A DNA stretch of 40,704 nucleotides from a virus: the UHGV virus genome UHGV-0244400. The stretch is one strand, 5' to 3'. Both the position numbers and the translations under genes were made by a program. Below, in pieces: positions 2,771-40,704 of this stretch (position 1 is its first letter; the number at the start of each line of letters is the position of its first letter). The notes beneath the pieces were generated by a model. The model searched no databases. It was not told the DNA's origin and worked only from the letters and a program-made list of their open reading frames with translations.

Positions 2771-2931
2771 TTTATCAGTTCGCTCCCATCCGTACCAGTC
2801 CGCAAAATCCCCTGAATATCAAGCTTTCCGTAGATTTACAGTTCGTAATGGTTCGCGTCAGATCGTTGACAGCCGCACTCCATGACGGGTAAAAAGTGGA
2901 TAAAATAATTTTACCCACCGGATTTTTACCC

Positions 2932-4089
2932 ATGCTCACCGTTAAGCAGATTGAAGCAGCAAAGCCGAAAGAAAAACCATACCGCCTACTCGATGGTAAT
3001 GGCCTGTACCTTTATGTCCCTGTATCCGGAAAAAAGGTCTGGCAGCTTCGCTACAAGATTGACGGTAAGGAAAAAATACTGACCGTAGGAAAATATCCGC
3101 TTATGACTTTGCAGGAGGCAAGGGATAAAGCATGGACTGCGAGGAAAGACATCTCGGTTGGCATCGATCCGGTAAAGGCGAAAAAGGCCTCGTCTAACAA
3201 CAATTCCTTTAGTGCGATTTACAAGGAATGGTACGAACACAAGAAGCAAGTCTGGTCAGTAGGGTATGCGACTGAACTTGCAAAAATGTTTGATGACGAC
3301 ATTTTACCCATCATCGGCGGTCTTGAAATTCAGGATATTGAGCCGATGCAACTGCTGGAAGTAATCCGCAGATTTGAAGATCGCGGTGCAATGGAGCGAG
3401 CCAACAAGGCCCGCAGAAGATGCGGCGAGGTTTTCCGTTACGCTATTGTCACCGGAAGGGCTAAATATAACCCGGCACCTGACCTTGCTGACGCCATGAA
3501 GGGATACCGCAAGAAAAACTTCCCGTTTCTTCCTGCAGACCAGATCCCGGCATTTAACAAAGCACTGGCAACATTTTCAGGAAGTATCGTATCGCTCATT
3601 GCGACCAAAGTTTTACGCTACACAGCCCTAAGAACGAAAGAGCTTCGTTCCATGCTATGGAAGAACGTCGATTTTGAAAACAGGATTATCACCATCGACG
3701 CCAGTGTGATGAAGGGTCGCAAAATTCATGTGGTCCCTATGTCAGACCAGGTGGTTGAACTTCTCACTACGCTAAGCTCTATCACCAAACCAGTATCAGA
3801 GTTTGTTTTTGCCGGGCGCAACGATAAGAAGAAGCCAATCTGCGAGAACGCGGTATTGCTTGTGATCAAACAAATCGGCTATGAAGGTCTGGAAAGCGGT
3901 CACGGATTCAGGCATGAATTCAGCACGATTATGAACGAGCACGAATGGCCTGCTGATGCTATTGAAGTGCAACTGGCACATGCCAACGGCGGATCTGTGC
4001 GCGGGATTTACAACCATGCTCAGTATCTCGATAAGCGCAGAGAAATGATGCAGTGGTGGGCGGATTGGCTTGATGAAAAGGTGGAGTGA
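2932..4089 (+). CDS. intS: P4-type tyrosine integrase (IntS-like)
   Basis: 385 aa from the first ATG (track ORF begins at an upstream GTG); N-terminus MLTVKQIEAAKP and C-terminal catalytic region typical of P4-family integrases; adjacent to tRNA. Confidence 0.9.
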   Translation: MLTVKQIEAAKPKEKPYRLLDGNGLYLYVPVSGKKVWQLRYKIDGKEKILTVGKYPLMTLQEARDKAWTARKDISVGIDPVKAKKASSNNNSFSAIYKEWYEHKKQVWSVGYATELAKMFDDDILPIIGGLEIQDIEPMQLLEVIRRFEDRGAMERANKARRRCGEVFRYAIVTGRAKYNPAPDLADAMKGYRKKNFPFLPADQIPAFNKALATFSGSIVSLIATKVLRYTALRTKELRSMLWKNVDFENRIITIDASVMKGRKIHVVPMSDQVVELLTTLSSITKPVSEFVFAGRNDKKKPICENAVLLVIKQIGYEGLESGHGFRHEFSTIMNEHEWPADAIEVQLAHANGGSVRGIYNHAQYLDKRREMMQWWADWLDEKVE

Positions 4090-4251
4090 TCAGCTTTAAC
4101 CACCTTCGAATAGCGCAAAGCTTTGCAATCCAGTGCAAAGCCTTATGTGTCTCATGATGTATCGCTCAATGTGTTTTGTGGTGATATACTTAGAATCTTT
4201 CCTAGCACACTGATTTTCATAGTGACAACTTTAAAGATCATAACTACACAC

Positions 4252-5367
4252 ATGACCAGACAACTTAATGGGATACAGGTTTTGCGTGGTATCGCAGCCT
4301 TAATAGTCGTTTTAGGACATAACAGATCTCTGTATGGGCACATAGATAGTGGTTCTTTTATAGACTATTTGACAATGCAGGCAACGTTTGGTGTTGAGGT
4401 ATTTTTCATAATAAGTGGATTCATAATCACTTATTCCACAAGAAATGCTTCAGGAGATTCACTCTCTAGATTTTATTCATTTCTGACTAAGCGCATATTT
4501 AGAATATATCCAATATATTTTATTGTATTAAGCGTATATATCTCTTTGTTTTGTTATAATTTTAAAGAAGGACATTTCGCTCTTTATGAATTTACCTTAA
4601 GTAACATCATCAAATCTTTCTTACTTATACCGCTTAATCCAAATATAAGCCCTCCATTTTATGGATGGGGGACTCTCATTGTGTCATGGACTCTTGGATA
4701 TGAGATGTATTTCTATATGGTTTTTTCATTTTCCTTATTAATTTCCAAGAAATACAGAAGCTATATATCAATGGCAATATTGATGGCTGTATATTTGTGC
4801 CTATCGGTTTCCTTTGGTAATCCAATAGACTTTAATGCCAATACATTTCATGTTCCTTTCTATGGGTATCATAGTTATCTAGGATTCATTGGAAATCCAA
4901 TAATATTTGACTTTGTACTAGGGATGATAATTGCCGAATGTTATTTGCGATTTCATGATAAACTGTTCGAAAATAAAACAATTGGATATCTATCTATTCC
5001 AGTTATAACTCTATGCTTTATGATGTGGCTTACAGGATTTAAATCAGGCCAAGGTATAACCAATACTGGATTTATTGCTTGCTTGATAGTCTTTTGCGCA
5101 ATATGCATAGAAACATCTACCAAGATTGAGTTTCCAAAGTTCATGGTATTGATGGGTACGTGTTCATACTCTCTTTACCTTATTCATGTTCCGATTAAAA
5201 AAATAATAGAGATATATGGAAAGGATATTCCATTCATTCCGCAAGAACCATCAGTAATGATGTATTTAATGTCCATCTCAGTATCAATAAGCCTGTCTAT
5301 ACCAATGTACTATCTGGTAGAGAAAAAATTTATAGATATAGGACATAATATTTCCAAAAAAATATAA
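4252..5367 (+). CDS. Acyltransferase family 3 integral membrane protein; putative O-antigen (LPS) O-acetyltransferase, serotype-conversion cargo
   Basis: Multi-pass hydrophobic protein with the N-terminal LNGIQVLRGIAALIVVLGHN motif typical of acyltransferase-3 (Oac/OafA-like); strongly AT-rich; located between int and tail-fibre genes; start chosen at first ATG (track ORF starts at TTG 4123). Confidence 0.75.
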   Translation: MTRQLNGIQVLRGIAALIVVLGHNRSLYGHIDSGSFIDYLTMQATFGVEVFFIISGFIITYSTRNASGDSLSRFYSFLTKRIFRIYPIYFIVLSVYISLFCYNFKEGHFALYEFTLSNIIKSFLLIPLNPNISPPFYGWGTLIVSWTLGYEMYFYMVFSFSLLISKKYRSYISMAILMAVYLCLSVSFGNPIDFNANTFHVPFYGYHSYLGFIGNPIIFDFVLGMIIAECYLRFHDKLFENKTIGYLSIPVITLCFMMWLTGFKSGQGITNTGFIACLIVFCAICIETSTKIEFPKFMVLMGTCSYSLYLIHVPIKKIIEIYGKDIPFIPQEPSVMMYLMSISVSISLSIPMYYLVEKKFIDIGHNISKKI

Positions 5368-5415
5368 TGATAGTGCCGCCAAAAAAAGGCGGCATTAGAA
5401 TAAAAAGACTAATTA

Positions 5416-5847
5416 TTATTTACTTGGAGGTTCAGGCCAAGTAACATATGATACAGTAGATGTATCAATTTTCTCAAGCTCATCAAGATAATCAAGCCAC
5501 AAATTGTATTGCGCTAATTCATCCCCTTTCAGCCGACCAATAGCTGCTTTCCCTGGCCATTGTTTACTGTTCATGAAGTTGTTTGCTTCAGCGATGCGTG
5601 ATGCCTTTTCATTTTCAGCAACTGCAATCTGCTGTTCATGGGTGAGTGGTGGCGTTGAAATCCAGACAGGGTGGCCATTTTTATCACTGCCTCTTATGTT
5701 ACCTGGTTGGGGTATTCCGGTATATGTTGCAAATACATCCTCATCAACAACAACTCCGTCAACAGGCCAATCACCTGTAGCCTCATATGAACTTTTCAGA
5801 GACATTGGATAGAAAGCATTACTGGTGGCGCTATAAACATATTTCAT
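5416..5847 (-). CDS. Tail fibre assembly protein (Tfa-like chaperone)
   Basis: 143 aa; position immediately after the tail fibre gene; conserved C-terminal Tfa-like sequence character. Confidence 0.75.
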   Translation of the reverse strand: MKYVYSATSNAFYPMSLKSSYEATGDWPVDGVVVDEDVFATYTGIPQPGNIRGSDKNGHPVWISTPPLTHEQQIAVAENEKASRIAEANNFMNSKQWPGKAAIGRLKGDELAQYNLWLDYLDELEKIDTSTVSYVTWPEPPSK

Positions 5848-5849
5848 TT

Positions 5850-6491
5850 TTAAATCCCTATTGCTATCCAGGAAATATTTGTCGCTGTTCTGTTAAATAC
5901 AGAGCCCGCACTCACTAACCACGCTGAAAGAAAAAAACCTGACTTATCGATGACCTGGCAACCTACAATATTTGCTGCACTGGCATCTGTTCCACCCCCT
6001 GTGACTCCGTAACATTGAGTCGGGAAAGGAATAGGGAAATTAATAATGATTGAACTACTGTTACTGGATGTATGATAGCCATACTGAATAATTTTACCAG
6101 ATGGAAATTTCATCCAACCCGGACCAGAAGCAAACGAAGCCATGTCTGGTATTTGGTTTGTCTTTGTCCCCACATTCCTTTTTGCCGCTTCTCCCAAACC
6201 AAGGTTTTTGAGAGCCGTTTTCACGGTGCCATCCGATTTGATATCGCCAAACGGATTCTTGCGGCTTAACAGCAGCGCACGAAGCGCGGTAAGCAGCTGG
6301 TCGTGCCGCGCCTTCTCAAGACTGGCACCGGATGCCTCAACAACGCTACAAAGTTCTTCCTGCAACATGTCAAAGTAGTCATCATCCAGATCGGTGGCAG
6401 GCGTGCCAGTCTGGGGGTTACCACGGGTAAAACCGTTCTTACCCGCGCCGAACTTATCCTTCTGCGCGGTTTTCGTGTCTATACGATGCAT
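5850..6491 (-). CDS. Tail fibre protein (short, Mu S-like position)
   Basis: 213 aa; last gene of baseplate cluster before tfa; Gly/Ser/Thr-rich C-terminal region. Confidence 0.7.
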
Positions 6492-6494
6492 GGA

Positions 6495-7079
6495 TTACTC
6501 CGGATATTTAAAAATTACGTAGGTATGCGACGGGCAGAGTTTGTTAAGCACACACTCGACAACGGTGTCACCCCAGATACGCAGTGCGGAATCACAGGGA
6601 TCGACACATGTCATCCAGGTGGTGTTGGTGGTGGTTGGCATGTTGACCTGCCAGTAATACCGCCATTCCGGCGCATTCACCGCGTCAGTACAGGCCGATG
6701 AGCAGGTGAACGTGCTTTTGTCGTATCGCGTGATGGTGGCATCTGGTCTGCCCAGGGCAGCAAGCTGTGCAAGATAAAAATCCTCGTTGATGCCGCCCGC
6801 CAGGTTAATCTTCGCATCCAGCCGTTGCTGACGCTGGCGAAGGGTCTGCGTTCCCGCCGGAATACATTCATCCGGCAGACCGCACAGACGCTCCCAGCGG
6901 TTTATCAGTTCAGTGGTGGTGCGCGGATCCAGCTCCCGCATCAGGGCATCCGCACGCTGATGAACACGGGTTAATGACGGTGCCGCACCGGCAATCGCCG
7001 GATCGCTGGCTGACCACGCCGGACCGGGCGGCAACAGTGCCGATAACAGGCGGATGTAATCATCGTTTGTCACGTCCAT
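6495..7079 (-). CDS. Baseplate/tail protein (Mu gp48-like, DUF2313-type)
   Basis: 194 aa; position between baseplate J-like gene and tail fibre as in Mu-like tails. Confidence 0.65.
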
Positions 7080-8128
7080 GAAATCGTCCCCAGTACCGCC
7101 AGTTCGTTTTTCGCAATGGAGATATTGTCCACCGGTGCAAGCAACTGATGGCTGTATTCCCCGTTCGCACCGGAAATCGCCTCACTGATACGCGATACCT
7201 TCAGTTCTCCCTGCGGATAACCATCACGCAGCAGGAACGAACGCAACTCCGCGGTAATGGCAGCCCGTATTTCCGGTGTGTCCGGCGTCACGCGGATATG
7301 AAAATCCACCGTATGTGCCACCGGCCTGAACACATACAAATCAGAGCCTGCCACCGGGGCCAGTGGCTCGATATGCAGCCTTGCCGCCGTTTCCGTTGAT
7401 TCTTCCGGAATGGGATTAATCAGGTCGCTGCTGGCAATCATCACACCGACAGTCCCCGTTCCCATCCAGTGACGGTATGTCCATGCGCGGGTAATGCCGG
7501 GCACTTCTTTAGCCCAGACGACATAGTCCCCGTCAGCCCCGCCCTGAGGTGTCCAGTAATACCGCTCAATGACGCGGGCGCGCCACGTTTCCAGCTCTTC
7601 AGTATCAAATCCACCTGTCAGGGTATCTGCCACGCCGGAAGACGGCAGACCATTCACCGGCGTGACCAGGATTAATGCCGTACCGTCGTCAGCGTTACCG
7701 ACCGCGCCTGCACTTGAGCAGGCGATCGGCACGCGCAGGACACCACCGGAGCTGGTTGCATCGGCAGTTGCCGTGTACTGAACCAGGTCATCGCGCTGAA
7801 TAACACTCCCGGCAGTCACCTTCAGGCCATCGCTGACACCTTCCCAGCGCATATACCCGCTGGCAGCCGTGGCCCCCTTGCGCGGACACCGTTTCATCGC
7901 AGCATGTCGCGCCAGCCAGGACTCATCGCACAGGTCAGGCAGCATATTCATTGCCAGATAATCGATGTACCCGTAAACCGTATGCAGCGCCGCCGCATAC
8001 ACCTTTGCCCGCACGTCTTCATCCATGCGCCGGAGCGTGTCGCTGACGTCCAGCCTGGCGAATAAATCGTTACGGAGCATACTGATATTTTCTGCCAGCG
8101 TCGGGCGCTGAAATTCACTGTCCGCCAT
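7070..8128 (-). CDS. Baseplate J-like protein (Mu gp47-like)
   Basis: 352 aa; size and position in baseplate cluster; overlapping start/stop with neighbours. Confidence 0.8.
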
Positions 8129-8543
8129 GCGTTATCGCACTCCACAGATCATCAAAAGAAATCATTACCGGTCCGTCACGACGCCAGAGGGTGATACTGT
8201 TACCCAGTTCATTAATCCCGGTGCGGCGGATATCCAGATCAATACGGGACACCACGCCGTCATCAATCATCCATTGCAGGCATTCACGGATATACCCCCT
8301 TACCGTCTGCACCAGCTGATTGGTCAGTTTGCTGCGCTGAAGCAGCCACAGTCGGGAGCCGTAACGGTCATTCTGTACCGCAGGCCAGGTATCCCCCCAC
8401 CATCCCATCGGGACGTCGGCGTTGTCATCAGGCTCCGCCCGCCGCCAGGTAAACAGGGAAATCACCACGGCGCGGGTCAGCGGATCCAGCGGTGCGCTGG
8501 CGCAGGTGCGTTTACCGTTCACCGTCAGCCACAGTTCCATCAT
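8115..8543 (-). CDS. Baseplate wedge protein (Mu gp46 / gp25-like)
   Basis: 142 aa; position between baseplate spike and J-like genes. Confidence 0.7.
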   Translation of the reverse strand: MMELWLTVNGKRTCASAPLDPLTRAVVISLFTWRRAEPDDNADVPMGWWGDTWPAVQNDRYGSRLWLLQRSKLTNQLVQTVRGYIRECLQWMIDDGVVSRIDLDIRRTGINELGNSITLWRRDGPVMISFDDLWSAITHGGQ

Positions 8544-9088
8544 GCCTCCATCGCTTTATCAGGTTTGTCGGTGTTACTGCCCTGACCGTTCTCTCTGTGA
8601 CAATGCCCGTTATAGGCAAGCCGCATCGCTGACATGGTGGTGCCGCCGGAGTCGCACAGGTCTTTCACCTGTCCGGTCACTTCAAGGTCCATTTCAAAAC
8701 GTGCTTCAGGTGCATTGCGAAACGTGATCGTTTTACCTGCACCGTCCACTACGATCCCCTCCCGGGTCAGCGTCACGGACTGCCCCTGATCGTCATAGAC
8801 AGCCACCTCACCCGTCTGCAGCCCTTTCAGGCGGTAGCGCCGGTCCGACACCGTAACAACCACCGCATGAGAACGGTCGCCATCCGGAAACAACACCACC
8901 GCTTCCGCACCGCTGTTTGCCCTTGCGGTAAAACCGTAGGGTTCAAGATGTTCAACCCCGGCTTTGGGTTCACCGGCAATCAGGGACACATCCACGGTCT
9001 GACATTTCGTGGCGGCACTGATGCTTTTCACCACGGCCCGCCCAATCAGGCCGAGGAGTTGTCGCTGCATGGCTTCAATCGTCCTCAT
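8540..9088 (-). CDS. Baseplate assembly protein V / central spike (Mu gp45-like)
   Basis: 182 aa; position and size in Mu-like baseplate cluster. Confidence 0.7.
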   Translation of the reverse strand: MRTIEAMQRQLLGLIGRAVVKSISAATKCQTVDVSLIAGEPKAGVEHLEPYGFTARANSGAEAVVLFPDGDRSHAVVVTVSDRRYRLKGLQTGEVAVYDDQGQSVTLTREGIVVDGAGKTITFRNAPEARFEMDLEVTGQVKDLCDSGGTTMSAMRLAYNGHCHRENGQGSNTDKPDKAMEA

Positions 9089-10167
9089 CAGAACGGGTCC
9101 TCCTGTACTCTGGCTTTTTTCTTTTTCCGCGCGCCGGGGGCTTCTGGTTCAGGCAGATAAGCATCAGGTGGGCCGACACGGATTTCCGTCAGGGTGCCGT
9201 TCTGGTCCTGAGTAAACGTGACTTCCGAGACAAGCAGTTCGGTATTGTCGAAACCACAGACCGGATCGAAGACAATCACCCGCTGGTTGGGCTGCCACAG
9301 CGTACCGTTACCCTGTCGCCAGCCCTGCACCACATAGGTGGTTTCATCCGTCCGCGCCGCCCGTTGTCGGGCTTCAAAGTCAGCACGCGCAATACAGCCT
9401 GCCCCCGTGGCCTGCCCTGTCTGCCTGATATACATCGGACGGTAACGGGCAATAAATGCGTCCTCTGTGCGGGCCCGCAGCGCGGTGGTGGTGGCCTCAC
9501 CGAAATCATCGTCGTTTCCGGCACGCTGCCCCGCCACCTGGTAAACTGAAAACCGCTCCCGGATACTCTTCTCCGTATCACAGGAAAGGATGTTTTCCCC
9601 AAGTACCAGCGCGGTATGTGCCCGCGTTGAGCCAATACCGCCAATCACCAGCCTGCCGTGCGGGTCGTCATAAGCCAGCGCCTGCTGCTGACCGAGTATT
9701 TTGTTGATCACCTCGATCACCGTTTCACCGTGATCAGGCTGGACATCAGGAATAACACCCGACGGCGCATCGCTGTTCACCACCTCAATGCCGAAAGGCG
9801 CAGCAAGCGCCTGCGCAATCTGTACCAGCGATCGTCCGTTAAACTGTGTCGGTTCGGCTGCACAGTCAATCAGGTCAGCAGTCAGACTACGTCCGGCAAT
9901 ACCGGTGCTGACCGAACGGGCATCGTAACGAACGGGGGTCGCCTCCACCCAGCCGGTGATCACCAGCTCATCACCAATCAGCACTTCCACTTTTGAACCA
10001 TTTTTAATGCGCGGCTGAAGCGTGGTGATACCCTCATCTCCCGGCCACTGGCGGGTGATCTCCACGCTGAAATCCCGCGCCAGCCGTTCAATACCGGCAC
10101 CGATGCGCACCGATGTCCAGCCATTCCACTCCCGGCCATTTACCCGTAGCGTGACGTTATCGTTCAT
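9088..10167 (-). CDS. Tail protein, P2 gpD / Mu gp44-like (baseplate hub)
   Basis: 359 aa; position after DNA-circularisation gene; translationally coupled (start overlaps upstream stop). Confidence 0.75.
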   Translation of the reverse strand: MNDNVTLRVNGREWNGWTSVRIGAGIERLARDFSVEITRQWPGDEGITTLQPRIKNGSKVEVLIGDELVITGWVEATPVRYDARSVSTGIAGRSLTADLIDCAAEPTQFNGRSLVQIAQALAAPFGIEVVNSDAPSGVIPDVQPDHGETVIEVINKILGQQQALAYDDPHGRLVIGGIGSTRAHTALVLGENILSCDTEKSIRERFSVYQVAGQRAGNDDDFGEATTTALRARTEDAFIARYRPMYIRQTGQATGAGCIARADFEARQRAARTDETTYVVQGWRQGNGTLWQPNQRVIVFDPVCGFDNTELLVSEVTFTQDQNGTLTEIRVGPPDAYLPEPEAPGARKKKKARVQEDPF

Positions 10168-11498
10168 TGCACTGGCACCTTCAGAGGGATCACCGGCACA
10201 AAGCCGGGATGCGTAATGGCATTACGCCGAATAATGTCCGCGTCACGCGCCGCGTTATCAAACCAGGTCGCCGCCAGCACCAGCGCGGGTAAAACCTCAT
10301 CCGGTGTGCGATGAATGATCCGTGCAGACTGCTCAAGGCGCGTGTTGATATCCGCATTCAGATCTGCTTTCACCCGGCGCAGCGCCAGAAACAGCGCATC
10401 ACTGGTTGTACGGGACAACTCCTTATCAATTGCCGTATTCAGTGTGTCGCGAATGTCAGTCAGTTCTTCCCACGTCGGCAGGTCAACCGTGTTTTTCACC
10501 GCCGGTGCATTGTTCAGTGCCGGATGCGTGACGGAAGGCCAACCGGTGCTCTGCGCAGGTGTTGTTGCCTGCCCCACTGTGGCATTCTGCATCACCGCGG
10601 AAGTTGTTGGCGCAGGCAATCGGATGACGGCATACGCCGCTTCGCTGATTGCGGTCGTACGAAGGGTGCTGGCAACCACGTTACGCTGCTGCGTCGCCGT
10701 GGCGGTGGTTTTACTGTCCGTTTTCCAGACGCCGCGCGGTTGCAGATCGCTGCCGAGGCTGACACCGGAAAGCGTTTTGATCATGGTGACCAGGTCGCTG
10801 GCGTTACCATAAAGGCGTTTCCCGGTACGCCACATTTTCTGCACCTGCTCAACGAAATTTTTGCCTGACGATGGCGGCGGCAGAAGTACCGAGATATCAC
10901 CCTGCAACAGCCTGGCGGCATCCGATACGGCAGAATCCACCACTTTCATCGCATCAGAAACATACCCAAGCATTGTGCTGGCATTACCGATAACGTCGTT
11001 CTGCACAAAATCCGCCACGCCATCGATACTGAAACCGCTGAAGCTGTCACTGATGCAGTCATCCAGTGCAGAACAGGATGACATCAGCGTCTGCGCCGTC
11101 GCCACGCCTGATGTGGGGTAAGAGAGATCTCCCGCTTCGACAAACTTCAGGTCAAAGCGGACAATACGCCCTTCACTCTTCGATGTGCTGACCCGAACTT
11201 CCCCGTCAACACAGACTTTCAACTCACCGTATGTCGGGTGGACAAGCGTGCCGGGACCGGGTTTATTCAGCGCGTCAATCAGGCGATCGCGCTGGTCAAA
11301 GCAGTCATCTCCCACCACATAAGCCGTGATGGACGGGCGGAAAGTGACTTTTCCCAGATCTTCGGTATAGGGTTTGTCGCGGTTCGGATATTCGTGTGTT
11401 TCCACACGACGGCCGGTTCCCGCACTTTCTTCTTCAACCTTAAACGGCACACCTCGAAATGACGCATCCTGAAGCCTGTCTTTCCACGTCATATACAC
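10164..11498 (-). CDS. DNA circularisation protein (Mu N / gp43-like) tail component
   Basis: 444 aa; position between tape measure and baseplate hub as in Mu. Confidence 0.75.
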   Translation of the reverse strand: MYMTWKDRLQDASFRGVPFKVEEESAGTGRRVETHEYPNRDKPYTEDLGKVTFRPSITAYVVGDDCFDQRDRLIDALNKPGPGTLVHPTYGELKVCVDGEVRVSTSKSEGRIVRFDLKFVEAGDLSYPTSGVATAQTLMSSCSALDDCISDSFSGFSIDGVADFVQNDVIGNASTMLGYVSDAMKVVDSAVSDAARLLQGDISVLLPPPSSGKNFVEQVQKMWRTGKRLYGNASDLVTMIKTLSGVSLGSDLQPRGVWKTDSKTTATATQQRNVVASTLRTTAISEAAYAVIRLPAPTTSAVMQNATVGQATTPAQSTGWPSVTHPALNNAPAVKNTVDLPTWEELTDIRDTLNTAIDKELSRTTSDALFLALRRVKADLNADINTRLEQSARIIHRTPDEVLPALVLAATWFDNAARDADIIRRNAITHPGFVPVIPLKVPVQ

Positions 11499-32947: not shown

Positions 32948-32979
32948 GCCCTTTTTCAGGGCTGGAATGTGTAAGAGCG
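32948..32979 (-). promoter_or_regulatory. nutR (boxA CGCTCTTACACA and boxB GCCCTGAAAAAGGGC) N-utilisation site
   Basis: Reverse complement of + strand at about 32948..32979 reproduces lambda nutR boxA/boxB; between cro and cII. Confidence 0.7.
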
Positions 32980-32986
32980 GGGTTAT

Positions 32987-33196
<210 letters not shown>

Positions 33197-33213
33197 TTAG
33201 TACATGCAACTAT

Positions 33214-33277
33214 TATCACCGCTAGAGGTAAAATAGTCAACACGCACGGTGTTGGATATTTATCCCTCGCGGTGATA
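33214..33277. promoter_or_regulatory. Right operator OR1-OR2-OR3 with divergent promoters PR (towards cro) and PRM (towards cI)
   Basis: Three 17-bp sites TATCACCGCTAGAGGTA, CAACACGCACGGTGTTG, TATCCCTCGCGGTGATA in the 100-bp cro-cI gap; lambda-type, with OR1 differing at one position from my memory of lambda. Confidence 0.85.
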
Positions 33278-33284
33278 GATTTAA

Positions 33285-34001
<717 letters not shown>

Positions 34002-34087
34002 GTCCGCAGCAAGAGACTTTATACGCATCTAGATGTAGGAAATAAAAAAGAAGATCCCTACAATAAAAATAAGGAAATCATTAAGAT

Positions 34088-34993
34088 ATGTCGATTAACA
34101 GCAATAGCGAATCCCTGCATCAAATGCAGCTTTTCCCTGTAGTAGAGGTTGTTTCTGATGATATTCCTATGGGCGTTCTCAATGATGGAACTCCTTACCT
34201 AACTCTCTACGGTCTCGCAAAGTTATGCGGCATTGATGACACGCCACTGAGGGTGTTCACATCAAACTGGAACACAGAGAAAAACAAACCCAGAGGTCAA
34301 AAAGTAGCTGCGTATTTAGCTGAGAAAGGGTTTCATAACGTCGAAAAGCTATACACTCGCGTTTTAAATAGCTCAAACGTGGAAACTCATGCTTATCCTG
34401 ACTATGTTTGCATGGCTATCCTCCGTTACTACGCTCTAGATGCCACCAATTTTGATAGGTCAGTCGCAATAGGTAATTTTGTTCGCTTGGCTGAGTACAC
34501 GCTTAAGCGAATGATTTATGAAAAGTCAAATTACAACCCAAATGCTTCAATAGATATCTCATTCGAGAACTATAGAGCAAGGATTAAGCTAAACGATCAG
34601 ATACCGACAACTCATTTTGCAGTATTCAGAGAGATAGCTGACATTGCCATGAACCTGATCGGAGGAGGATTCCCAATGGATGACACCACATCTTTGGATG
34701 GAAGTGTTGGAATTCACTGGGGAAAGTATTGGACAGCTAATGGGCTATCTGAGAAATTCGGGGAAAGGGTGCAGTACCCACATTTATTCCCCGAAAATTA
34801 CAGGCAGTCAGCTGCAAATAAGCATATAACAGCTTGGATTTATCCTATTGAGGCACTTGGCGTGTTCAGAAAATGGCTACACGATAATTACGCAATGGAA
34901 AAACTGCCAAATTACCTTGGGAACAAAAAGATTAGTAACGCCTCCGAGCTATTAGAGTCGATAAAAAAACCAGCACTCCCAAATAAGCATTGA
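34088..34993 (+). CDS. Unknown 301-aa protein at the rexAB-equivalent locus; candidate prophage-encoded anti-phage / abortive-infection protein (possibly BstA-like)
   Basis: Complete ORF with SD (AAGGA) 86 bp after the cI stop, no intervening terminator, followed by its own terminator and then OL/PL; AT-rich; no similarity to RexA/RexB; N-terminal region looks like a KilA-N/Bro-N-type domain (from memory, low confidence). Confidence 0.8.
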   Translation: MSINSNSESLHQMQLFPVVEVVSDDIPMGVLNDGTPYLTLYGLAKLCGIDDTPLRVFTSNWNTEKNKPRGQKVAAYLAEKGFHNVEKLYTRVLNSSNVETHAYPDYVCMAILRYYALDATNFDRSVAIGNFVRLAEYTLKRMIYEKSNYNPNASIDISFENYRARIKLNDQIPTTHFAVFREIADIAMNLIGGGFPMDDTTSLDGSVGIHWGKYWTANGLSEKFGERVQYPHLFPENYRQSAANKHITAWIYPIEALGVFRKWLHDNYAMEKLPNYLGNKKISNASELLESIKKPALPNKH

Positions 34994-35004
34994 TCTCCAC
35001 CACA

Positions 35005-35030
35005 ACCCGGCATCTGCGCCGGGTTTTCTT
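35005..35030 (+). terminator. Rho-independent terminator ending the cI operon (hairpin cccggc..gccggg followed by TTTTCTTT)
   Basis: Inverted repeat plus T-run 12 bp after the stop of the 301-aa gene. Confidence 0.6.
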
Positions 35031-35180
35031 TGCCTAACGCCCCCAAAAAACGCATAACCAATTGTATTTATTTCAAAATTAATAGATACAACTCACTAAA
35101 CATCGCAATTCAGATCTCTCGATCACCTTCCCAATCCACACAACCCTGCAAAAAATAAATCTATATAAAAAACATACAGA

Positions 35181-35244
35181 TAACCATCTGCGGTGATAAA
35201 TTATCTCTAGCGGTGTTGACATAAATACCACTGGCGGTGATACT
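35181..35244. promoter_or_regulatory. Left operator OL3-OL2-OL1 and promoter PL
   Basis: Sites AACCATCTGCGGTGATA, TATCTCTAGCGGTGTTG, TACCACTGGCGGTGATA with -35 TTGACA and -10 GATACT; lambda-type. Confidence 0.85.
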
Positions 35245-35283
35245 AAGCACATCAGCAGGACGCACTGACCACCATGAAGGTGA

Positions 35284-35314
35284 CGCTCTTAAAAATTAAG
35301 CCCTGAAGAAGGGT
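35284..35314 (+). promoter_or_regulatory. nutL (boxA CGCTCTTA, boxB GCCCTGAAGAAGGGT)
   Basis: Matches lambda nutL with one change at the 3' base of the boxB stem (still G-U pairable). Confidence 0.75.
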
Positions 35315-35512
35315 AGCATTCAAAGCAGAAGGCTTTGGGATTGGATGAATGAGCAGGCTGATGCTCGACCAATGTATAAACAGCGCTCATGGCAAGCAGT
35401 AACCAATCTGCGCCTCAAGACAGCGTCACTGGTAGTGCGGGCGCTCTAACCAGTAAGCCGGGGTTCAGCGCCGGCCATCCAATCACCAAAGCTAACTGAC
35501 AGGAGAATCCAG

Positions 35513-35845
35513 ATGGATGCACAAACACGCCGCCGCGAACGTCGCGCAGAGAAACAGGCTCAATGGAAAGCAGCAAATCCCCTGTTAGTTGGGGTAAGCG
35601 CAAAACCAGTTAACCGCCCTATTCTCTCGCTGAATCGAAAACCGAAATCACGAGTAGAAAGCGCACTGAATCCGATAGACCTTACGGTGCTGGCTGAATA
35701 CCACGAACAGATTGAAAGCAACCTGCAGCGTATTGAGCGCAAGAATCAGCGCACATGGTACAGCAAGCCACGCAGTGAAATAGGTGTGACTTGCTCAGGC
35801 CGCCAGAAGCAACGCGGAAAATCAATTCCAGCTTATTACGATTGA
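35513..35845 (+). CDS. N: Antiterminator N
   Basis: 110 aa; N-terminal Arg-rich motif MDAQTRRRERRAEKQAQWKAAN as in lambda N; SD AGGAGA upstream. Confidence 0.95.
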   Translation: MDAQTRRRERRAEKQAQWKAANPLLVGVSAKPVNRPILSLNRKPKSRVESALNPIDLTVLAEYHEQIESNLQRIERKNQRTWYSKPRSEIGVTCSGRQKQRGKSIPAYYD

Positions 35846-35853
35846 GGTGAGCC

Positions 35854-35991
35854 ATGCTCAAGAAAGTCAAGCGCCGACTTTACAAAGAAGGTAGATATTC
35901 ATGCCAGTTGCCAAAATGCGACACAACAAAATGGAGTGTCGATGATTGGTGTAACTGGATAGATAGATACGGAACTTGGTGGGATAAATAA
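35854..35991 (+). CDS. Small Cys-containing hypothetical protein (45 aa) directly after N
   Basis: ATG 8 nt after N stop with SD GAGGTGA; contains 4 Cys (C..C...C..C spacing not a classic zinc ribbon); below track cut-off. Confidence 0.35.
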   Translation: MLKKVKRRLYKEGRYSCQLPKCDTTKWSVDDWCNWIDRYGTWWDK

Positions 35992-36045
35992 CAGGTAACT
36001 TAAGCGTATTTACTTTCGCAGCAAACCACTTATTTGAGGTGAGAT

Positions 36046-36516
36046 ATGACAAAATCATGGAGCGTACCTTTTCCTGAATCAGAAACTGAACATGATGGAA
36101 TGCCTGTTTTCTGGAGATTCCAGGCGACAGTTGAAGAAGATGGGATAAAAATATTCGCACTTCAATATATAGCTTTTCATCAGACAGAGCATTATGCATG
36201 GTTGGTTCCTGCGCATTGGATTGTTAATTTTAAACCAGCACCAAATCAGTGGTTACAGGAATGGAAACAAAGGAGAAATAGATATGCAATTAAGAAAGTA
36301 GCAAAAAATGCAGAAAGATCTTTTGCATTCCCAACGAAGAAACTTGCTATTGAAAGTTTATTGCGCCGGAAGAAATACCATTTAATGAGAATAAAACAAG
36401 ATTTGGCTGTTGTATCAACTCTTGTTGATGGGATGAAAAATATTGATACATCAACACCAGATATTGAATATAACTTTGGACACAACCAAGAAACAGAAAA
36501 CTGGGTGTTTTATTAG
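36046..36516 (+). CDS. Hypothetical 156-aa protein in the N-cIII accessory slot (lambda ral/sieB/ea10 position)
   Basis: ATG with SD GAGGTGAGAT; AT-rich; Trp-rich N-terminal half and basic C-terminal half; no family recognised; followed by a terminator. Confidence 0.6.
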   Translation: MTKSWSVPFPESETEHDGMPVFWRFQATVEEDGIKIFALQYIAFHQTEHYAWLVPAHWIVNFKPAPNQWLQEWKQRRNRYAIKKVAKNAERSFAFPTKKLAIESLLRRKKYHLMRIKQDLAVVSTLVDGMKNIDTSTPDIEYNFGHNQETENWVFY

Positions 36517-36620
36517 TACGAATAAGCACTGTGTATTCATTCCAACGAGTGAATACACGGAGCAATGTCGCTCGTAACCAAACAGGAGCCGACTTGTTCT
36601 GATTATTGGAAATCTTCTTT

Positions 36621-36645
36621 GCCCTCCAGTGTGAGGGCCTTTTTA
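36621..36645 (+). terminator. Rho-independent terminator (hairpin gccctc..gagggc followed by CTTTTTA) upstream of cIII
   Basis: Inverted repeat plus T-run about 100 bp after the 156-aa gene; analogous to an N-suppressible tL terminator. Confidence 0.6.
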
Positions 36646-36706
36646 TATGCATACCAATAACGCTTCACTCGAGGCGTTTTCGTTATGTATAAATAAGGAG
36701 CACACC

Positions 36707-36871
36707 ATGCAATATGCCATTGCAGGGTGGCCTGTTGCTGGCTGCCCTTCCGAATCTTTACTTGAACGAATCACCCGTAAATTACGTGACGGATGGAAAC
36801 GCCTTATCGACATACTTAATCAGCCAGGAGTCCCAAAAAATGGATCAAACACTTATGGCTATCCAGACTAA
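36707..36871 (+). CDS. cIII: CIII (FtsH inhibitor, CII stabiliser)
   Basis: 54 aa [54 protein letters not shown] as in lambda; SD AAGGAG; track ORF extended upstream. Confidence 0.9.
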   Translation: MQYAIAGWPVAGCPSESLLERITRKLRDGWKRLIDILNQPGVPKNGSNTYGYPD

Positions 36872-36983
36872 ATTCACTATCGCCACTTTTATTGGCGATG
36901 AAAAGATGTTTCGTGAAGCCGTCGACGCTTATAAAAAATGGATATTAATACTGAAACTGAGATCAAGCAAAAGCATTCACTAA
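36840..36983 (+). CDS. kil: Kil (host cell-division inhibitor)
   Basis: 47 aa [47 protein letters not shown] as in lambda; overlaps cIII 3' end in another frame. Confidence 0.85.
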
Positions 36984-37058
36984 CCCCCTTTCCTGTTTTC
37001 CTAATCAGCCTGGCATTTCGCGGGCGATATTTTCACAGCCATTTTCAGGAGTTCAGCC

Positions 37059-37355
37059 ATGAACGCTTATTACATTCAGGATCGTCTTGAGGCTCAGAGC
37101 TGGGCGCGTCACTACCAGCAGATCGCCCATGAAGAGAAAGAGGCAGAACTGGCAGACGACATGGAAAAAGGCCTGCCCCAGCACCTGTTTGAATCGCTAT
37201 GCATCGATCATTTGCAACGCCACGGGGCCAGCAAAAAAGCCATTACCCGTGCGTTTGATGACGATGTTGAGTTTCAGGAGCGCATGGCAGAACACATCCG
37301 GTACATGGTTGAAACCATTGCTCACCACCAGGTTGATATTGATTCAGAGGTATAA
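37059..37355 (+). CDS. gam: Gam (RecBCD inhibitor), short GamS form
   Basis: 98 aa beginning [21 protein letters not shown], matching lambda GamS. Confidence 0.9.
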
Positions 37356-37360
37356 AACGG

Positions 37361-38146
37361 ATGAGTACAGCACTCGCAACGCTGGCAGGGAAGCTGGCTG
37401 AACGTGTCGGCATGGATTCTGTCGACCCACAGGAACTGATCACCACTCTTCGCCAGACGGCATTTAAAGGTGATGCCAGCGATGCGCAGTTCATCGCATT
37501 GTTGATCGTCGCCAACCAGTACGGCCTTAATCCGTGGACGAAAGAAATTTACGCCTTCCCTGATAAGCAGAACGGCATCGTTCCGGTGGTGGGCGTTGAT
37601 GGCTGGTCCCGCATCATCAATGAAAACCAGCAGTTTGATGGCATGGACTTTGAGCAGGACAATGAATCCTGTACATGCCGGATTTACCGCAAGGACCGTA
37701 ATCATCCGATCTGCGTTACCGAATGGATGGATGAATGCCGCCGCGAACCATTCAAAACTCGCGAAGGCAGAGAAATCACGGGGCCGTGGCAGTCGCATCC
37801 CAAACGGATGTTACGGCATAAAGCCATGATTCAGTGTGCCCGTCTGGCCTTCGGATTTGCTGGTATCTATGACAAGGATGAAGCCGAGCGCATTGTCGAA
37901 AATACTGCATACACTGCAGAACGTCAGCCAGAACGCGACATCACTCCGGTTAACGATGAAACCATGCAAGAGATTAACACTCTGCTGATCGCCCTGGATA
38001 AAACATGGGATGACGACTTATTGCCGCTCTGTTCCCAGATATTTCGCCGCGACATTCGCGCATCGTCAGAACTGACACAGGCCGAAGCAGTGAAAGCTCT
38101 TGGATTCCTGAAACAGAAAGCCACTGAGCAGAAGGTGGCAGCATGA
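37361..38146 (+). CDS. bet: Bet (Red-beta single-strand annealing protein)
   Basis: 261 aa beginning [48 protein letters not shown] as in lambda Bet. Confidence 0.95.
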
Positions 38147-38823
38147 CACCGGACATTATCGTGCAGCGTACCGGGATCGACGTGAGAGCTGTCGAACAGG
38201 GGGATGATACATGGCACAAATTACGGCTCGGCGTCATCACCGCTTCAGAAGTTCACAACGTGATAGCAAAGCCCCGCTCAGGAAAGAAGTGGCCTGACAT
38301 GAAAATGTCCTACTTCCACACCCTGCTGGCTGAGGTTTGCACCGGTGTGGCTCCGGAAGTTAATGCTAAGGCGCTGGCCTGGGGAAAACAGTACGAGAAC
38401 GACGCCAGAACTCTGTTTGAATTCACTTCCGGCGTGAATGTTACCGAATCCCCGATCATCTATCGCGACGAAAGTATGCGCACCGCCTGCTCTCCCGATG
38501 GTTTATGCAGTGACGGCAATGGCCTTGAGCTGAAATGCCCGTTTACCTCCCGGGATTTCATGAAGTTCCGGCTCGGTGGTTTCGAGGCCATAAAGTCGGC
38601 TTACATGGCCCAGGTGCAGTACAGCATGTGGGTGACACGAAAAGATGCCTGGTACTTTGCCAACTATGACCCGCGTATGAAGCGTGAAGGACTGCATTAT
38701 GTCGTGGTTGAGCGGGATGAAAAGTACATGGCGAGTTTTGACGAGATGGTGCCGGAGTTCATCGAAAAAATGGACGAGGCACTGGCTGAAATTGGTTTTG
38801 TATTTGGGGAGCAATGGCGATGA
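38143..38823 (+). CDS. exo: Exo (Red-alpha 5'-3' exonuclease)
   Basis: 226 aa beginning [40 protein letters not shown] as in lambda Exo; 4-nt overlap with bet. Confidence 0.95.
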
Positions 38824-39002
38824 CGCATCCTCACGATAATATCCGGGTAGGCGCGATCACTTTCGTCTACTCCATTACAAAGCGAGGCTGGGTATTTCCC
38901 GGTCTTTCTGTTATCAGAAATCCACTGAAAGCACAGGGGCTGGCTGAAGAGATAAATAATAAACGAGGGGCTGTATGCACAAAGCATCTCCTGTTGAATT
39001 AA
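38814..39002 (+). CDS. Small hypothetical protein (lambda orf60a-like position)
   Basis: 62 aa ORF overlapping exo stop, as in the lambda exo-ea region. Confidence 0.55.
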
Positions 39003-39460
39003 GAACGAGTATCGAGATGGCACATAGCCTTGCTCAAATTGGAGTCAGGTTTGTGCCAATACCAGTAGAAACAGACGAAGAATTTCATACGTTAGCCGCA
39101 TCCCTTTCACAAAAGCTGGAAATGATGGCGGCGAAAGCAGAAGCAAACGAGAGAGAGACCCGGCATGACAACAACAGAATGCATTTTTCTGGCAGCGGGC
39201 TTCATATTCTGTGTGCTTATGCTTGCCGACATGGGACTTGTTCAATGACACCTCAGCAAGAAAACGCCCTTCGCAGCATTGCCCGTCAGGCTAATTCTGA
39301 AATCAAAAATGCCAGACAGCAGTTTCCGGATAAAAACGTCGATGACATTTGCCGTAGCGTACTGAAGAAGCACCGCGAAACGGTAACGCTGATGGGATTC
39401 ACACCGACTCACTTAAGTCTGGCAATCGGTATGTTAAACGGCGTCTTTAAGGAACGGTGA
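38975..39460 (+). CDS. Hypothetical protein resembling an in-frame fusion of lambda orf63 and orf61
   Basis: 161 aa; N-terminal half [23 protein letters not shown].. and C-terminal half MTPQQENALRSIARQANSEIK.. each recall separate small lambda ORFs. Confidence 0.55.
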   Translation: MHKASPVELRTSIEMAHSLAQIGVRFVPIPVETDEEFHTLAASLSQKLEMMAAKAEANERETRHDNNRMHFSGSGLHILCAYACRHGTCSMTPQQENALRSIARQANSEIKNARQQFPDKNVDDICRSVLKKHRETVTLMGFTPTHLSLAIGMLNGVFKER

Positions 39461-39558
39461 ACATGAAAAGCAAAATCATCAGGGAGCTACAGGCTCCTTT
39501 TTTATTATTCGCATTCACCCTCAAGCGTATTAACCAACAATTCAGGGATTAATGAAAG

Positions 39559-39780
39559 ATGGCAGATATCATTGATTCAGCATCAGAAATTGAAGAATTA
39601 CAGCGCAATACAGCAATAAAAATGCGTCGCCTGAACTACCAGACTGTATCCGCAACTCATTGTTGTGAGTGTGGCGATCCGATAGATGAACGAAGACGCC
39701 TGGCAGTTCAGGGTTGTCGGACTTGTGCAAGTTGCCAGGAGGATCTGGAGCTTATCAGTAAACAGAGAGGTTCGAAGTGA
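39559..39780 (+). CDS. TraR/DksA-family zinc-finger protein (lambda orf73-like)
   Basis: 73 aa with CxxC..CxxC motif (CCECGDPID...CRTCASCQ). Confidence 0.8.
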   Translation: MADIIDSASEIEELQRNTAIKMRRLNYQTVSATHCCECGDPIDERRRLAVQGCRTCASCQEDLELISKQRGSK

Positions 39781-39850
39781 TTCCACTGTCGCCAGGCCAT
39801 GCCTACGGGATGTTTATGGAACGTTTTAACGAGTTATCGGAGTTACGCAA

Positions 39851-40201
39851 ATGCGCATGAATGTTTTCGAAATGGAAGGGTTTCTTCGCGGGAAATGTGT
39901 ACCACGAGATCTGAAAGTGAATGAAACAAATGCTGAGTATCTGGTGCGTAAATTCGATGAAGTACGTGCTGAGGCTCGCAACGAGGGTATTAACTATACC
40001 GCAAGCCGTCTTGCTGCGGCTTTCAATCACGGATTTATCAATAAGTCTTTACGTGAAGTTTTCGACGTTACACGCATGATTCTGTCAGCGAAAGAAGAGT
40101 TGGCTAATGAACCACACCCGATTGATGGCCTGTCCGGTGAATATGCGGAGAAATCCCTAGAAGAATGGGCGGAACAGATTCGCAAAGGAGGCAACCAGTG
40201 A
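39851..40201 (+). CDS. Hypothetical protein, early-left accessory region
   Basis: 116 aa ORF; no family recognised. Confidence 0.55.
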   Translation: MRMNVFEMEGFLRGKCVPRDLKVNETNAEYLVRKFDEVRAEARNEGINYTASRLAAAFNHGFINKSLREVFDVTRMILSAKEELANEPHPIDGLSGEYAEKSLEEWAEQIRKGGNQ

Positions 40202-40704
40202 GCAAGATTGACTATCAAGAACTGCGCGAGGCGGCGGAACAGGCAACGCAAGATGAATGGGTAGCATATATTTTGCCGGGTCATAACGGCATTTATCCTG
40301 CGCGCACGTCTGAGGGTAGGCATTGCGGATACTTTATTGACTGGCCTGGCGTCTGTCAGGGGCGGGAGAGCATCAGCATCAGAACCTACGCAGTGAATTG
40401 CAATGACGCATGGCTAAACACCGAAGGTGATGACATCTCCGGCTCATACGTTAAGTACAAAGACCATCAGGAAGTGGTTGCCGCTCTTGAGGCCAAGTGC
40501 GCGGCGCTGGCTGCTGAGAATGCGGGAATAAAGTCTGCAATTCCAAAATCACGGGATATTGAGGATGACAATGACAATATGGATGACGTATCTCTCGCGG
40601 AAGACTTCGGGTTCAATCATGCAATAGAACGGATGAGGAGACAGATACCTGAAACGCCAACCACTGATGCTTTCCTGGCTGAAGTCCGGGCGCAGGGGGT
40701 GGAT
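40198..40704 (+). CDS. Hypothetical protein, 3' end beyond window (GTG start overlapping upstream stop)
   Basis: Open frame from GTG at 40198 (SD AAAGGAGG upstream) to the window edge, 169 codons without stop; acidic C-terminal region. Confidence 0.45.
   Translation, partial: MSKIDYQELREAAEQATQDEWVAYILPGHNGIYPARTSEGRHCGYFIDWPGVCQGRESISIRTYAVNCNDAWLNTEGDDISGSYVKYKDHQEVVAALEAKCAALAAENAGIKSAIPKSRDIEDDNDNMDDVSLAEDFGFNHAIERMRRQIPETPTTDAFLAEVRAQGVD

Follow-up and report, generated by a model that had tools for sequence, protein, structure and literature searches.

What kind of element occupies the argW locus in UHGV-0244400, a virus genome record of 40,704 nt, and where do its parts come from? The whole of this stretch is the window analyzed here. 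Its first 2.7 kb are E. coli chromosome, carrying mlaA, yfdC and the argW tRNA gene, and everything from the 3' end of argW (attL core, 2756–2777) to the window end is prophage. Position 40704 is the edge of the window, not the end of the prophage, which totals ~41.96 kb, ~38 kb of it inside the window. The original prediction was a mosaic prophage with a lambda immunity and early region, a Mu-like contractile tail, an HK97-like head and a replication module foreign to lambda. Our analysis indicates that the element is probably one temperate mosaic lambdoid prophage, apparently complete, integrated in argW and composed, like a patchwork, of four known sets of modules. All modules fall into families already described, and the whole is ordinary lambdoid mosaicism, not a new kind of element; each exchanged segment most likely carries a protein plus its own DNA or RNA target.

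We compared the window by blastn with lambda, SfV, vB_EcoM-689R6 (hereafter, 689R6), Mu and HK97, searched all open reading frames (ORFs) against the same five by tblastn, and compared Sf6 separately over the full sequence; Pfam, PHROG, PADLOC, Rfam and ARAGORN were used in addition. With lambda, HK97, Sf6, SfV and 689R6 as the five reference phages, 78% of the prophage DNA has a counterpart in one or another of them at 85% identity or better. Lambda alone accounts for 19%, so that the predicted 'lambda early region' is overstated, although part of it is indeed lambda. A source that the original prediction had left unnamed is Sf6: int, the N region, cII, the replication genes, the Q-qut-tRNA segment and torI/attR are all of Sf6 type at 96–98% identity. 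The junctions between modules are sharp, as had been expected of module exchange. GC content is 35–48% in the integrase and cargo part, 53–60% in the virion genes (except for a low stretch around an insertion at 11.5–12.1 kb) and 39–52% in the early genes, and these steps, which amount to 55–59% for virion, 44–50% for early and 35–44% for cargo parts in a coarser summary, fit separate origins.

The immunity region is in keeping with the claim of lambda specificity. The cI gene (33288–34001, plus strand) encodes a repressor that matches lambda CI at 234 of 237 amino acids (aa) and the repressors of HK97 and CL707 at all 237, and the product of cro (32987–33187, minus strand) is identical to lambda Cro (66/66 aa). 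OR1, OR2 and OR3, with PR and PRM (33214–33277), differ from lambda by one substitution per operator; the OR1 variant is that of HK97 and CL707, and the OR3 variant that of CL707. In the segment holding OL3, OL2 and OL1 with PL, and nutL (35182–35328), OL1 and OL3 are exact and OL2 has one change relative to lambda, while a single change in the nutL boxB replaces a G-C pair by G-U. OR and OL spacing is identical to that of lambda, and nutR, with rutA and rutB (32927–32979, minus strand; boxB 32947–32963), matches lambda exactly. At the DNA level, blastn finds lambda in cI-OR-cro-nutR (32866–34001, 98%) and in OL/PL/nutL (35004–35339, 91%). The window from 32581 to 35339 is 98.5% identical to the immunity region of CL707, including a bstA-like ORF, and the GenBank record of CL707, a phage also cited in PMC8585504, describes a wild phage deposited as having lambda immunity specificity. 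Homoimmunity with lambda is plausible because the repressor is that of HK97 and CL707, Cro is that of lambda and the operators differ so little, and a lysogen would be expected to repress both its own prophage and superinfecting lambda. HK97 is reportedly homoimmune with lambda, a point on which a literature search gave no usable statement.

The virion genes are of another origin, as predicted. Whole-genome comparison finds them without DNA similarity to lambda or to Mu (blastn), and the relation to Mu exists only at the protein level. Over 6141–24439 they are instead colinear with SfV and 689R6 at 95–97% DNA identity: 6141–18203 and 21799–24438 are 91–97% identical to SfV, 12182–24439 is 97% identical to 689R6, and the head genes (18204–21798) follow 689R6, not SfV. 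The virion proteins are full length and 96–100% identical to those of SfV or 689R6, and their genes lie on the minus strand. The block opens with a tail fiber assembly gene (tfa, 5416–5847) and the tail fiber gene (5850–6491), recognized by the Pfam models Caudo_TAP and Gp53-like_C; the first 142 aa of the fiber are 85% identical to SfV orf21, and its C-terminal, receptor-binding part differs. Homologs of the Mu baseplate and tail proteins gp48, gp47, gp46, gp45, gpP(44) and gpN(43) follow (6495–11498; 98–100% aa identity to SfV orf20–15, 27–45% to Mu; Pfam GpP-like, DNA_circ_N), and then the tape measure, a tail chaperone pair, the tail tube, the tail sheath and a Mu gp38-like protein (12176–16425; 98–100% aa identity to SfV orf14–10; Pfam Phage_sheath_1, Tail_tube, PhageMin_Tail). 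The prediction of a Mu-type contractile tail is thus sound: the genes stand in Mu order, with the sheath, tube, DNA_circ_N and GpP families present, and aa identities to Mu are 42% for gp38, 36% for sheath L, 43% (partial) for N, 35% for P, 33% for gp45, 45% for gp46, 31% for gp47 and 27% for gp48. Protein matches to Mu fall only in the tail genes and Rz, with none to transposase A/B and no sign of transpositional replication.

The head and packaging genes likewise agree with the predicted HK97-like set with an HNH endonuclease. Neck and head-completion genes (16434–18405; 96–99% aa identity to SfV or 689R6) include Phage_connect_1, Phage_HCP and tail terminator families, the Pfam matches being on an identical contig (L036). 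They are followed by the HK97-type major capsid, the S78 prohead protease, the portal and a small head-tail protein (18455–21726; Pfam Phage_capsid, Peptidase_S78, Phage_portal; 98–100% identity to 689R6). Capsid, protease and portal are 26–36% identical to HK97 gp5, gp4 and gp3 and only 26–28% to SfV. The large and small terminase subunits (21738–23971) are 98–99% identical to those of SfV and 689R6, with Pfam TerL_ATPase and TerL_nuclease domains, and an HNH endonuclease (24088–24438; Pfam HNH; 94–96% aa identity to SfV orf53 and 689R6) adjoins them and the putative cos site. It is 37% identical to the HK97 HNH protein encoded at 39054–39413 of NC_002167. The capsid (PF05065), S78 protease, portal (PF04860), large terminase and HNH domains all score above the Pfam cut-offs, and the individual aa identities to HK97 are 32% (portal), 36% (protease), 26% (capsid), 26% (TerL) and 37% (HNH), a likeness of fold and family. 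We place the putative cos at 24029–24030, where the two ends of the SfV record abut (21799–24029 aligns to SfV 2231–1, and 24030–24438 to SfV 37074–36666). HNH, TerS and TerL would act on this site, the head would consist of an HK97-fold capsid with its S78 protease and portal, and the tail would be Mu-like and contractile. Since the late block is of the SfV/689R6 type, the virion should be a myovirus.

Beside the HNH gene, a 60-aa ORF of the DUF2158 family (24718–24900, plus strand; phrog_3261, with PF09926 on identical contigs) lies between Rz and HNH. It is on the opposite strand and is conserved in all relatives sharing the late block, and the 587 bp around it (24440–25026) are unmatched by the five reference phages. 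In L037–L041, relatives of window 15164–25983, the late block begins just inside the S/R overlap, at the 5' end of R, and reaches to the tail; it is present there at 97–98% identity, coupled to several early regions that differ from one another and have other types of Q and holin.

The integration module is the Sf6 part that defines the two ends of the element. Its target, the host tRNA-Arg(CCU) gene argW (2696–2770, plus strand), is recognized by ARAGORN and by the Rfam tRNA model and agrees with the E. coli annotation order mlaA-yfdC-tRNA-Arg-intS. Adjoining argW in the same orientation is intS (2932–4089, plus strand), whose promoter region attL would overlap. The gene encodes a P4-type tyrosine integrase (Pfam Arm-DNA-bind_3, Phage_int_M, Phage_integrase) that is identical to K-12 IntS over all 385 aa, and the int region has 96.8% DNA identity to that of Sf6. 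The P4-like integrase at the tail end of the prophage, pointed out in the original prediction, is therefore real, and its position is the documented arrangement of KplE1, Sf6 and HK620 and not a peculiarity. The KplE1 module has int at one end and the gene for the recombination directionality factor (RDF) at the other, an int promoter that overlaps attL, and an att core of 16 nt (PMC2951348).

The attL core, CTGCAGGGGACACCATTTATCA, recurs as an exact 22-nt repeat 41.9 kb downstream, beyond the window; attR is not present within the window, which ends inside an Ead/Ea22-like ORF. We recovered the right end, which had been proposed to be recognizable by a repeat of the argW 3' end, on contig AATQFA010000002.1 of GCA_013061345.1 (hereafter, L019), found by an exact-protein look-up with the fused orf63/orf61 product described below. 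L019 is 100% identical to window positions 28975–40704 (11,730 nt) and extends 8.7 kb further. Its right arm carries more Ea22-like and small genes, then torI, a 66-aa gene whose product is identical to K-12 TorI (66/66 aa), and 74 nt further on the attR core CTGCAGGGGACACCATTTATCA (L019 15718–15739, 3,988–4,009 nt past the window end). The 22-nt repeat includes the 16-nt KplE1 core, CTGCAGGGGACACCAT. The case named beforehand as refuting the prediction, a remnant without its right end, is thereby answered, with the reservation that this end was read from a contig identical to the window and not from the window. This single pair of att repeats spans the entire 42 kb, in which (window plus L019 extension) there is no second integrase. 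One had been considered for the right end, as hinted by a look-up with the 116-aa protein encoded at 39851–40201, which matched only in unrelated SfV-like prophages with lambda-type integrases; L019 ruled this candidate out. IntS, next to attL, would be transcribed from the promoter inside attL, with its RDF TorI at the far end by attR, and, by analogy with the regulation described for KplE1, excision would need TorI made from the PL side together with IntS made from its own autoregulated promoter.

Three further observations concern this right end. A 15-nt fragment, TGCAGGTTCGATTCC (L019 15410–15424), just upstream of torI, ~300 nt before the attR core and ~3.7 kb beyond the window end, is identical to part of the argW T-arm; it could be left over from a former att site, or else it belongs to the attP arm. 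An 87-aa gene (phrog_1714) is duplicated locally among the Ea22-like genes (L019 12439–12702 and 13311–13574). Beyond attR, the chromosomal flank (L019 16170–20486) holds a gene of the OmpH family and upaE, which encodes a phase-variable autotransporter adhesin, compared with dsdC in K-12; at least 233 complete E. coli genomes have this torI-upaE junction.

The replication genes, too, are those of Sf6, and the claim that lambda O and P are replaced by an iteron-bearing initiator and a DnaB-type helicase is well supported. In place of P stands a DnaB-type replicative helicase gene (30091–31542, minus strand; Pfam DnaB and DnaB_C; 32% aa identity to HK97 gp55; 98.3% DNA identity to Sf6 gene 44). 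The 296-aa initiator (31517–32407, minus strand) belongs to phrog_345, 'replication initiation O-like', and corresponds to Sf6 gene 43 with its annotated rep_origin. Inside the initiator gene, at 31924–32022, lie six copies of the 11-bp iteron TTGTCCAACGG in two clusters of three, followed by an AT-rich tract, and in Sf6 this stretch is the annotated origin. A search of the whole window with the 11-mer GTTGTCCAACG at no more than one mismatch gave six matches (0.8 expected by chance), five of them iteron copies and one unrelated at 21457; the sixth copy (31924–31934) was read from the sequence. The Sf6-type initiator would bind the iterons inside its own gene and work with the phage DnaB helicase instead of lambda O and P. 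Upstream, cII (32590–32868, minus strand; 92 aa; Pfam Phage_CII) is the Sf6 allele, with 90 of 92 aa identical to Sf6 gene 41 and 46 of 92 to lambda cII. A PRE box (TTGC-N6-TTGC) lies on the opposite strand at the cII 5' end, where pRE is annotated in CL707, and the Sf6-type CII would be expected to act on this box.

Late control follows the same pattern. The late antiterminator gene Q (26770–27288, minus strand) is of phage-21/Sf6 type (PF06530 Phage_antitermQ, 90 bits; phrog_943; 98% DNA identity to Sf6 gene 59) and has no similarity to lambda Q by tblastn, corroborating the prediction of a different Q. At 26707–26792 on the same strand are a late promoter PR' (TTGACA-18-CATAAT, 11/12 in the promoter scan), a qut region and a tR' hairpin with a T-run (−21.5 kcal/mol, z = −3.5); the equivalent region of Sf6, annotated as a phage-21-like PR', qut and tR', is 98.2% identical. 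The late leader then carries tRNA-Thr(UGU) and tRNA-Asn(GUU) genes (26551–26706, minus strand; ARAGORN and Rfam), in a segment 98.2% identical to Sf6, where the same two tRNAs are annotated. As they lie between tR' and S, downstream of PR'/qut, their expression should depend on Q, which would act on its own PR'-qut-tR' and read through the two tRNA genes into S-R-Rz.

These lysis genes occupy 25164–26308 on the minus strand: Rz/Rz1 (25164–25541; Rz 86% identical to SfV), endolysin R (25525–26001; 144/158 aa identical to lambda) and holin S (25985–26308; 107/107 aa). Lambda DNA covers 25550–26560, S and R, at 94% (blastn). R, which had been listed as lambda, is indeed near lambda but belongs to the late block shared with SfV-like prophages: from R leftwards, this block is common to other such prophages at 97–98%. 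In relatives, the block R-Rz-DUF2158-HNH-virion, identical up to 25983, is joined to at least three other early regions, so that recombination seems to have taken place repeatedly at the boundary of S and R (~25984).

The remaining lambda DNA is found in the nin region and in the arm transcribed from PL. The nin region (27279–29307, minus strand) comprises ninI, ninG, ninF and ninE, 95–97% identical at the aa level to their lambda counterparts, and a divergent ninB (38%); lambda DNA extends over ninI (27286–27941, 97%) and ninG/F/E (27947–28893, 97%). Next to it (29319–30015, minus strand) are three small genes for proteins of 63, 94 and 68 aa, for which none of the five reference phages has a match; phrog_343 and phrog_1165 take in the second and third proteins, of 94 and 68 aa, and the 63-aa ORF has no PHROG match.

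On the other side, all on the plus strand, N (35513–35845) encodes an antiterminator with 99 of 107 aa identical to lambda N, differing at K64E and in the last ~22 residues, and lambda DNA covers most of the gene (35484–35769, 98%). As a whole, N is the Sf6 allele (98.4% DNA identity to the Sf6 N region). It would be expected to work with both nutL and nutR. A homolog of HK97 gp45 (36046–36516; 99% aa identity over 156 residues; phrog_1636) precedes a long lambda segment (36649–39780, 97%) that runs from cIII through exo to orf61. It contains the cIII RNA thermometer (36694–36752; Rfam Lambda_thermo, 88.5 bits), cIII (36707–36871; 54/54 aa), kil (36840–36983; 47/47), gam (37059–37355; 95/98), bet (37361–38146; 261/261) and exo (38143–38823; 98%), a block that would supply further early functions. 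The list of lambda genes in the original prediction accordingly stands for cIII, kil, gam, bet, exo, N, S, R and ninG/E/F and fails for cII. Downstream (38814–39780) are lambda orf60a (DUF1317), a fused orf63/orf61 (161 aa, DUF1382; 38975–39460) and a gene for a DksA/TraR-type zinc-finger protein, as identified by tblastn, PHROG and identical contigs. The exact fused protein occurs in 246 blocks of the assembly collection, of which 24 contigs were read, and this recurrence marks it as a stable variant and not an error. The window closes (39851–40704) with the 116-aa gene (39851–40201) that is common to SfV-like prophages and with the 5' part (169 codons) of an Ead/Ea22-like gene that runs on past the window; in the early arm, the match to SfV is limited to 199 nt (39761–39959).

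Three genes appear to be cargo, and we propose that all are expressed in lysogeny and stand at classic moron positions. Between int and tfa lies a gene for a 371-aa membrane O-acetyltransferase (4252–5367, plus strand; GC content ~35%; PF01757 Acyl_transf_3; phrog_3333, O-acetyltransferase), a candidate O-antigen modifier. Its product matches P0001, an E. coli protein of 371 aa, at 100% identity, whereas Sf6 Oac reaches 22% and Salmonella phage proteins 45%, and the gene is absent, at the megablast level, from 5,426 complete E. coli genomes. The proposed likeness to SfV-type serotype-converting phages thus holds for the virion (95–97% DNA identity) but not for conversion genes or integrase: there is no gtr homolog, and Acyl_transf_3 and IntS take the place of gtrABC and the SfV integrase. 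In one other contig (L031) the acetyltransferase-tfa-fiber cassette adjoins a different integrase.

The second cargo gene, overlooked in the original prediction, is bstA (34088–34993, plus strand; 301 aa), a predicted abortive-infection gene in the position of rexAB, which is absent. It matches PADLOC model PDLC02356 (E = 1.3e-105, residues 8–286) and phrog_6287 (E = 6e-133), is 42.5% identical to BTP1 BstA and 100% identical to the unnamed ORF between cI and OL of CL707, and starts directly downstream of the end of cI (34001) on the same strand. BstA genes sit downstream of prophage repressor genes, BTP1 BstA expressed in E. coli blocks lambda, phi80, P1 and T7, and prophages evade their own BstA through a cognate DNA element, aba, specific to each BstA (PMC8585504). 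The present system resembles BTP1 BstA-aba in its full-length match to the BstA model and in its place directly downstream of the repressor gene, but at only 42.5% identity.

The third, a 176-aa moron (11554–12084, minus strand), is AT-rich, has its own intrinsic terminator and forms a 666-bp insertion relative to SfV and 689R6 (window 11517–12181), between the tape-measure gene and the gpN-like gene. The protein has an N-terminal hydrophobic membrane anchor or signal sequence and belongs to phrog_5485, with no Pfam or PADLOC match and no tblastn match in the phage records. Its family numbers only 25 homologous clusters (Escherichia, Leclercia, Lelliottia), none with more than a generic name, and an AlphaFold2 model of moderate confidence (pLDDT 70.6) gave no fold match in the PDB with E < 0.02. 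We speculate that it could be a superinfection-exclusion factor.

How does this combination compare with known phages? The collections searched comprised 50,697 phage genomes and 5,426 complete E. coli genomes; no entry in either reaches 80% coverage of a queried window segment, and the whole module combination was found in neither. SfV, SfII, SfI, SfIV and 689R6 share the late block, from HNH and terminase to the fiber N-terminus, at 95–97% DNA identity, and the SfV group, like the prophage, combines an HK97-like head with a Mu-like contractile tail and keeps cargo for O-antigen modification, a predicted function in the prophage, beside the integrase gene. The SfV early region (yfdN–T-like genes, SfV cI/cro, SfV Q), int/xis and gtrABC are all absent here; the fiber C-terminus and tfa differ, the head genes are 689R6-like, and the 176-aa moron is extra.

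Sf6 and HK620 are P22-like lambdoid podoviruses that integrate in argW, as the prophage does. Identity to Sf6 is 96–98% over the attL core and intS (2756–4082), R-S-tRNAs-tR'-qut-PR'-Q-ninI (25550–27941), ninG/F/E, initiator-helicase-cII-nutR (30008–32981), the N region (35471–36048) and, in the extension, torI-attR; the gene order is also the same (int, O-antigen acetylase, virion genes, then early genes and torI). Sf6 differs in its 434-like immunity, its Erf/Abc2 recombination module, its P22-like podovirus virion and its other Oac (22% aa identity), against lambda-type immunity, the Red and Gam functions of lambda and a predicted myovirus virion of SfV type in the prophage. With lambda, HK97 and CL707 it shares cI, cro, OR, OL, nutL and nutR (and with CL707 the bstA-like ORF as well), and with lambda additionally cIII-kil-gam-bet-exo, S and ninE/F/G/I. 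Lambda features absent here are the virion genes, O, P, ren, Q, rexAB, ninH, int/xis and the lambda cII. Finally, KplE1/CPS-53 of K-12 has the same argW site, 16-nt core and opposite placement of int and RDF, with 100% identical IntS and TorI, but has shrunk to a 10.2-kb remnant that lacks a repressor and carries gtr-like yfdGHI and early genes resembling those of SfV, against 42 kb with a lambda-type switch here, and its right flank is dsdC, not upaE.

Is the prophage as complete as it appears? Several points weigh against a complete temperate phage. Four operators (OR1, OR2, OR3 and OL2) carry single-base changes that may affect repressor and Cro binding. ninH, which is non-essential in lambda, is precisely missing between ninG and ninI (lambda 43043–43233 is absent at 27941/27947). 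There is no BTP1-like terminal CCCGCC repeat around the bstA start that would mark an aba element, only short weak repeats. The right 4.0 kb, with torI and attR, come from an identical contig, which may belong to another genome; induction and virion formation are predicted here from sequence; and the left end exists as a truncated remnant in other strains, decay at the argW locus being common. Some of this would fit a cryptic, non-inducible prophage that only looks intact and is retained, like CPS-53/KplE1, for its cargo (bstA, the acetyltransferase and immunity). The argW locus often holds remnants, such as the 10.2-kb CPS-53 of K-12 and, in several strains, a left end alone (intS, acetyltransferase, tfa, fiber and part of a baseplate gene) that stops at ~6643. 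Moreover, in L022, an almost identical copy, the initiator gene is broken into two parts, and the ninH deletion is a loss in the present prophage itself. Yet each essential gene examined is full length when compared with its functional homolog in SfV, 689R6, Sf6 or lambda, HK97 and CL707, which are isolated phages, have the very same repressor protein, and several assemblies contain the identical sequence. We regard a cryptic remnant as unlikely, though it is the most substantial of the competing explanations.

A single element is also far better supported than two adjacent ones, in which an old argW island (intS, acetyltransferase, tfa, fiber) would have come to lie beside an SfV/lambda-like prophage without an integrase of its own. 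The left 3.9 kb do occur alone in other strains, the acetyltransferase-tfa-fiber cassette lies beside a different integrase in L031, and in relatives that share the right-arm genes the Ea22 genes are followed by an integrase of lambda type. The fiber, however, with its SfV orf21-like N-terminal 142 aa, continues the baseplate operon without a gap; only one pair of att repeats, and no second integrase, exists in the 42 kb; torI, the cognate RDF gene of IntS, stands at the far end exactly as in Sf6 (by comparison, the IntS/TorI prophage at argW in GN25, a typical one, has a P22-like virion); and the remnants, identical up to 6643, are best read as deletion derivatives. We consider two elements very improbable. 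An assembly chimera, in which lambdoid repeats common to several prophages of a single genome had led to a false join between them, deserves a thought because window positions 24000–40704 have matches at a median of 3 places per E. coli genome, with a maximum of 13, and short-read assemblies can mis-join these. Independent assemblies, both metagenome scaffolds and NCBI genomes, are nevertheless 100% identical over long stretches, namely 20,378 nt (window 15164–35541) in the metagenome scaffold L036 and 28975–40704 in L019, L020 and L021, and further strains are 99.3% identical over 1–6643; with 6141–24439 colinear with SfV and 689R6, the sequence is not an assembly artifact, and we give the chimera next to no weight.

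One temperate mosaic prophage in argW hence remains the likely reading. A bolder form of it, that this is a fully functional inducible phage not yet described as an isolate, combining an SfV-type contractile tail, lambda immunity and Red, IntS/TorI and three cargo genes that might change the host surface and phage sensitivity, is tentative, and we think it somewhat less probable than its opposite. If true, the cargo would comprise a divergent O-antigen acetyltransferase seldom seen in E. coli, a BstA variant with its own aba and a moron that is possibly a new superinfection-exclusion factor.

Much of what this prophage displays has been published already: lambdoid mosaicism, the SfV design of HK97 head and Mu tail, the Sf6/HK620 backbone, the IntS/TorI module and BstA downstream of cI. 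What it adds is an unusually clean example of module exchange in which protein and site stay together, in the pairs cI/cro and operators, N and nut, cII and PRE, initiator and iterons, Q and qut, Int/RDF and att, and terminase/HNH and cos. It also shows a possible form of an intact prophage at the locus that holds CPS-53/KplE1 in K-12. Studies of lysogenic conversion and superinfection exclusion may find modest starting points in the acetyltransferase and the orphan moron. A lysogen may be resistant to lambda by two independent routes, immunity and BstA, which would matter wherever lambda-derived tools or phage typing are applied to wild E. coli.

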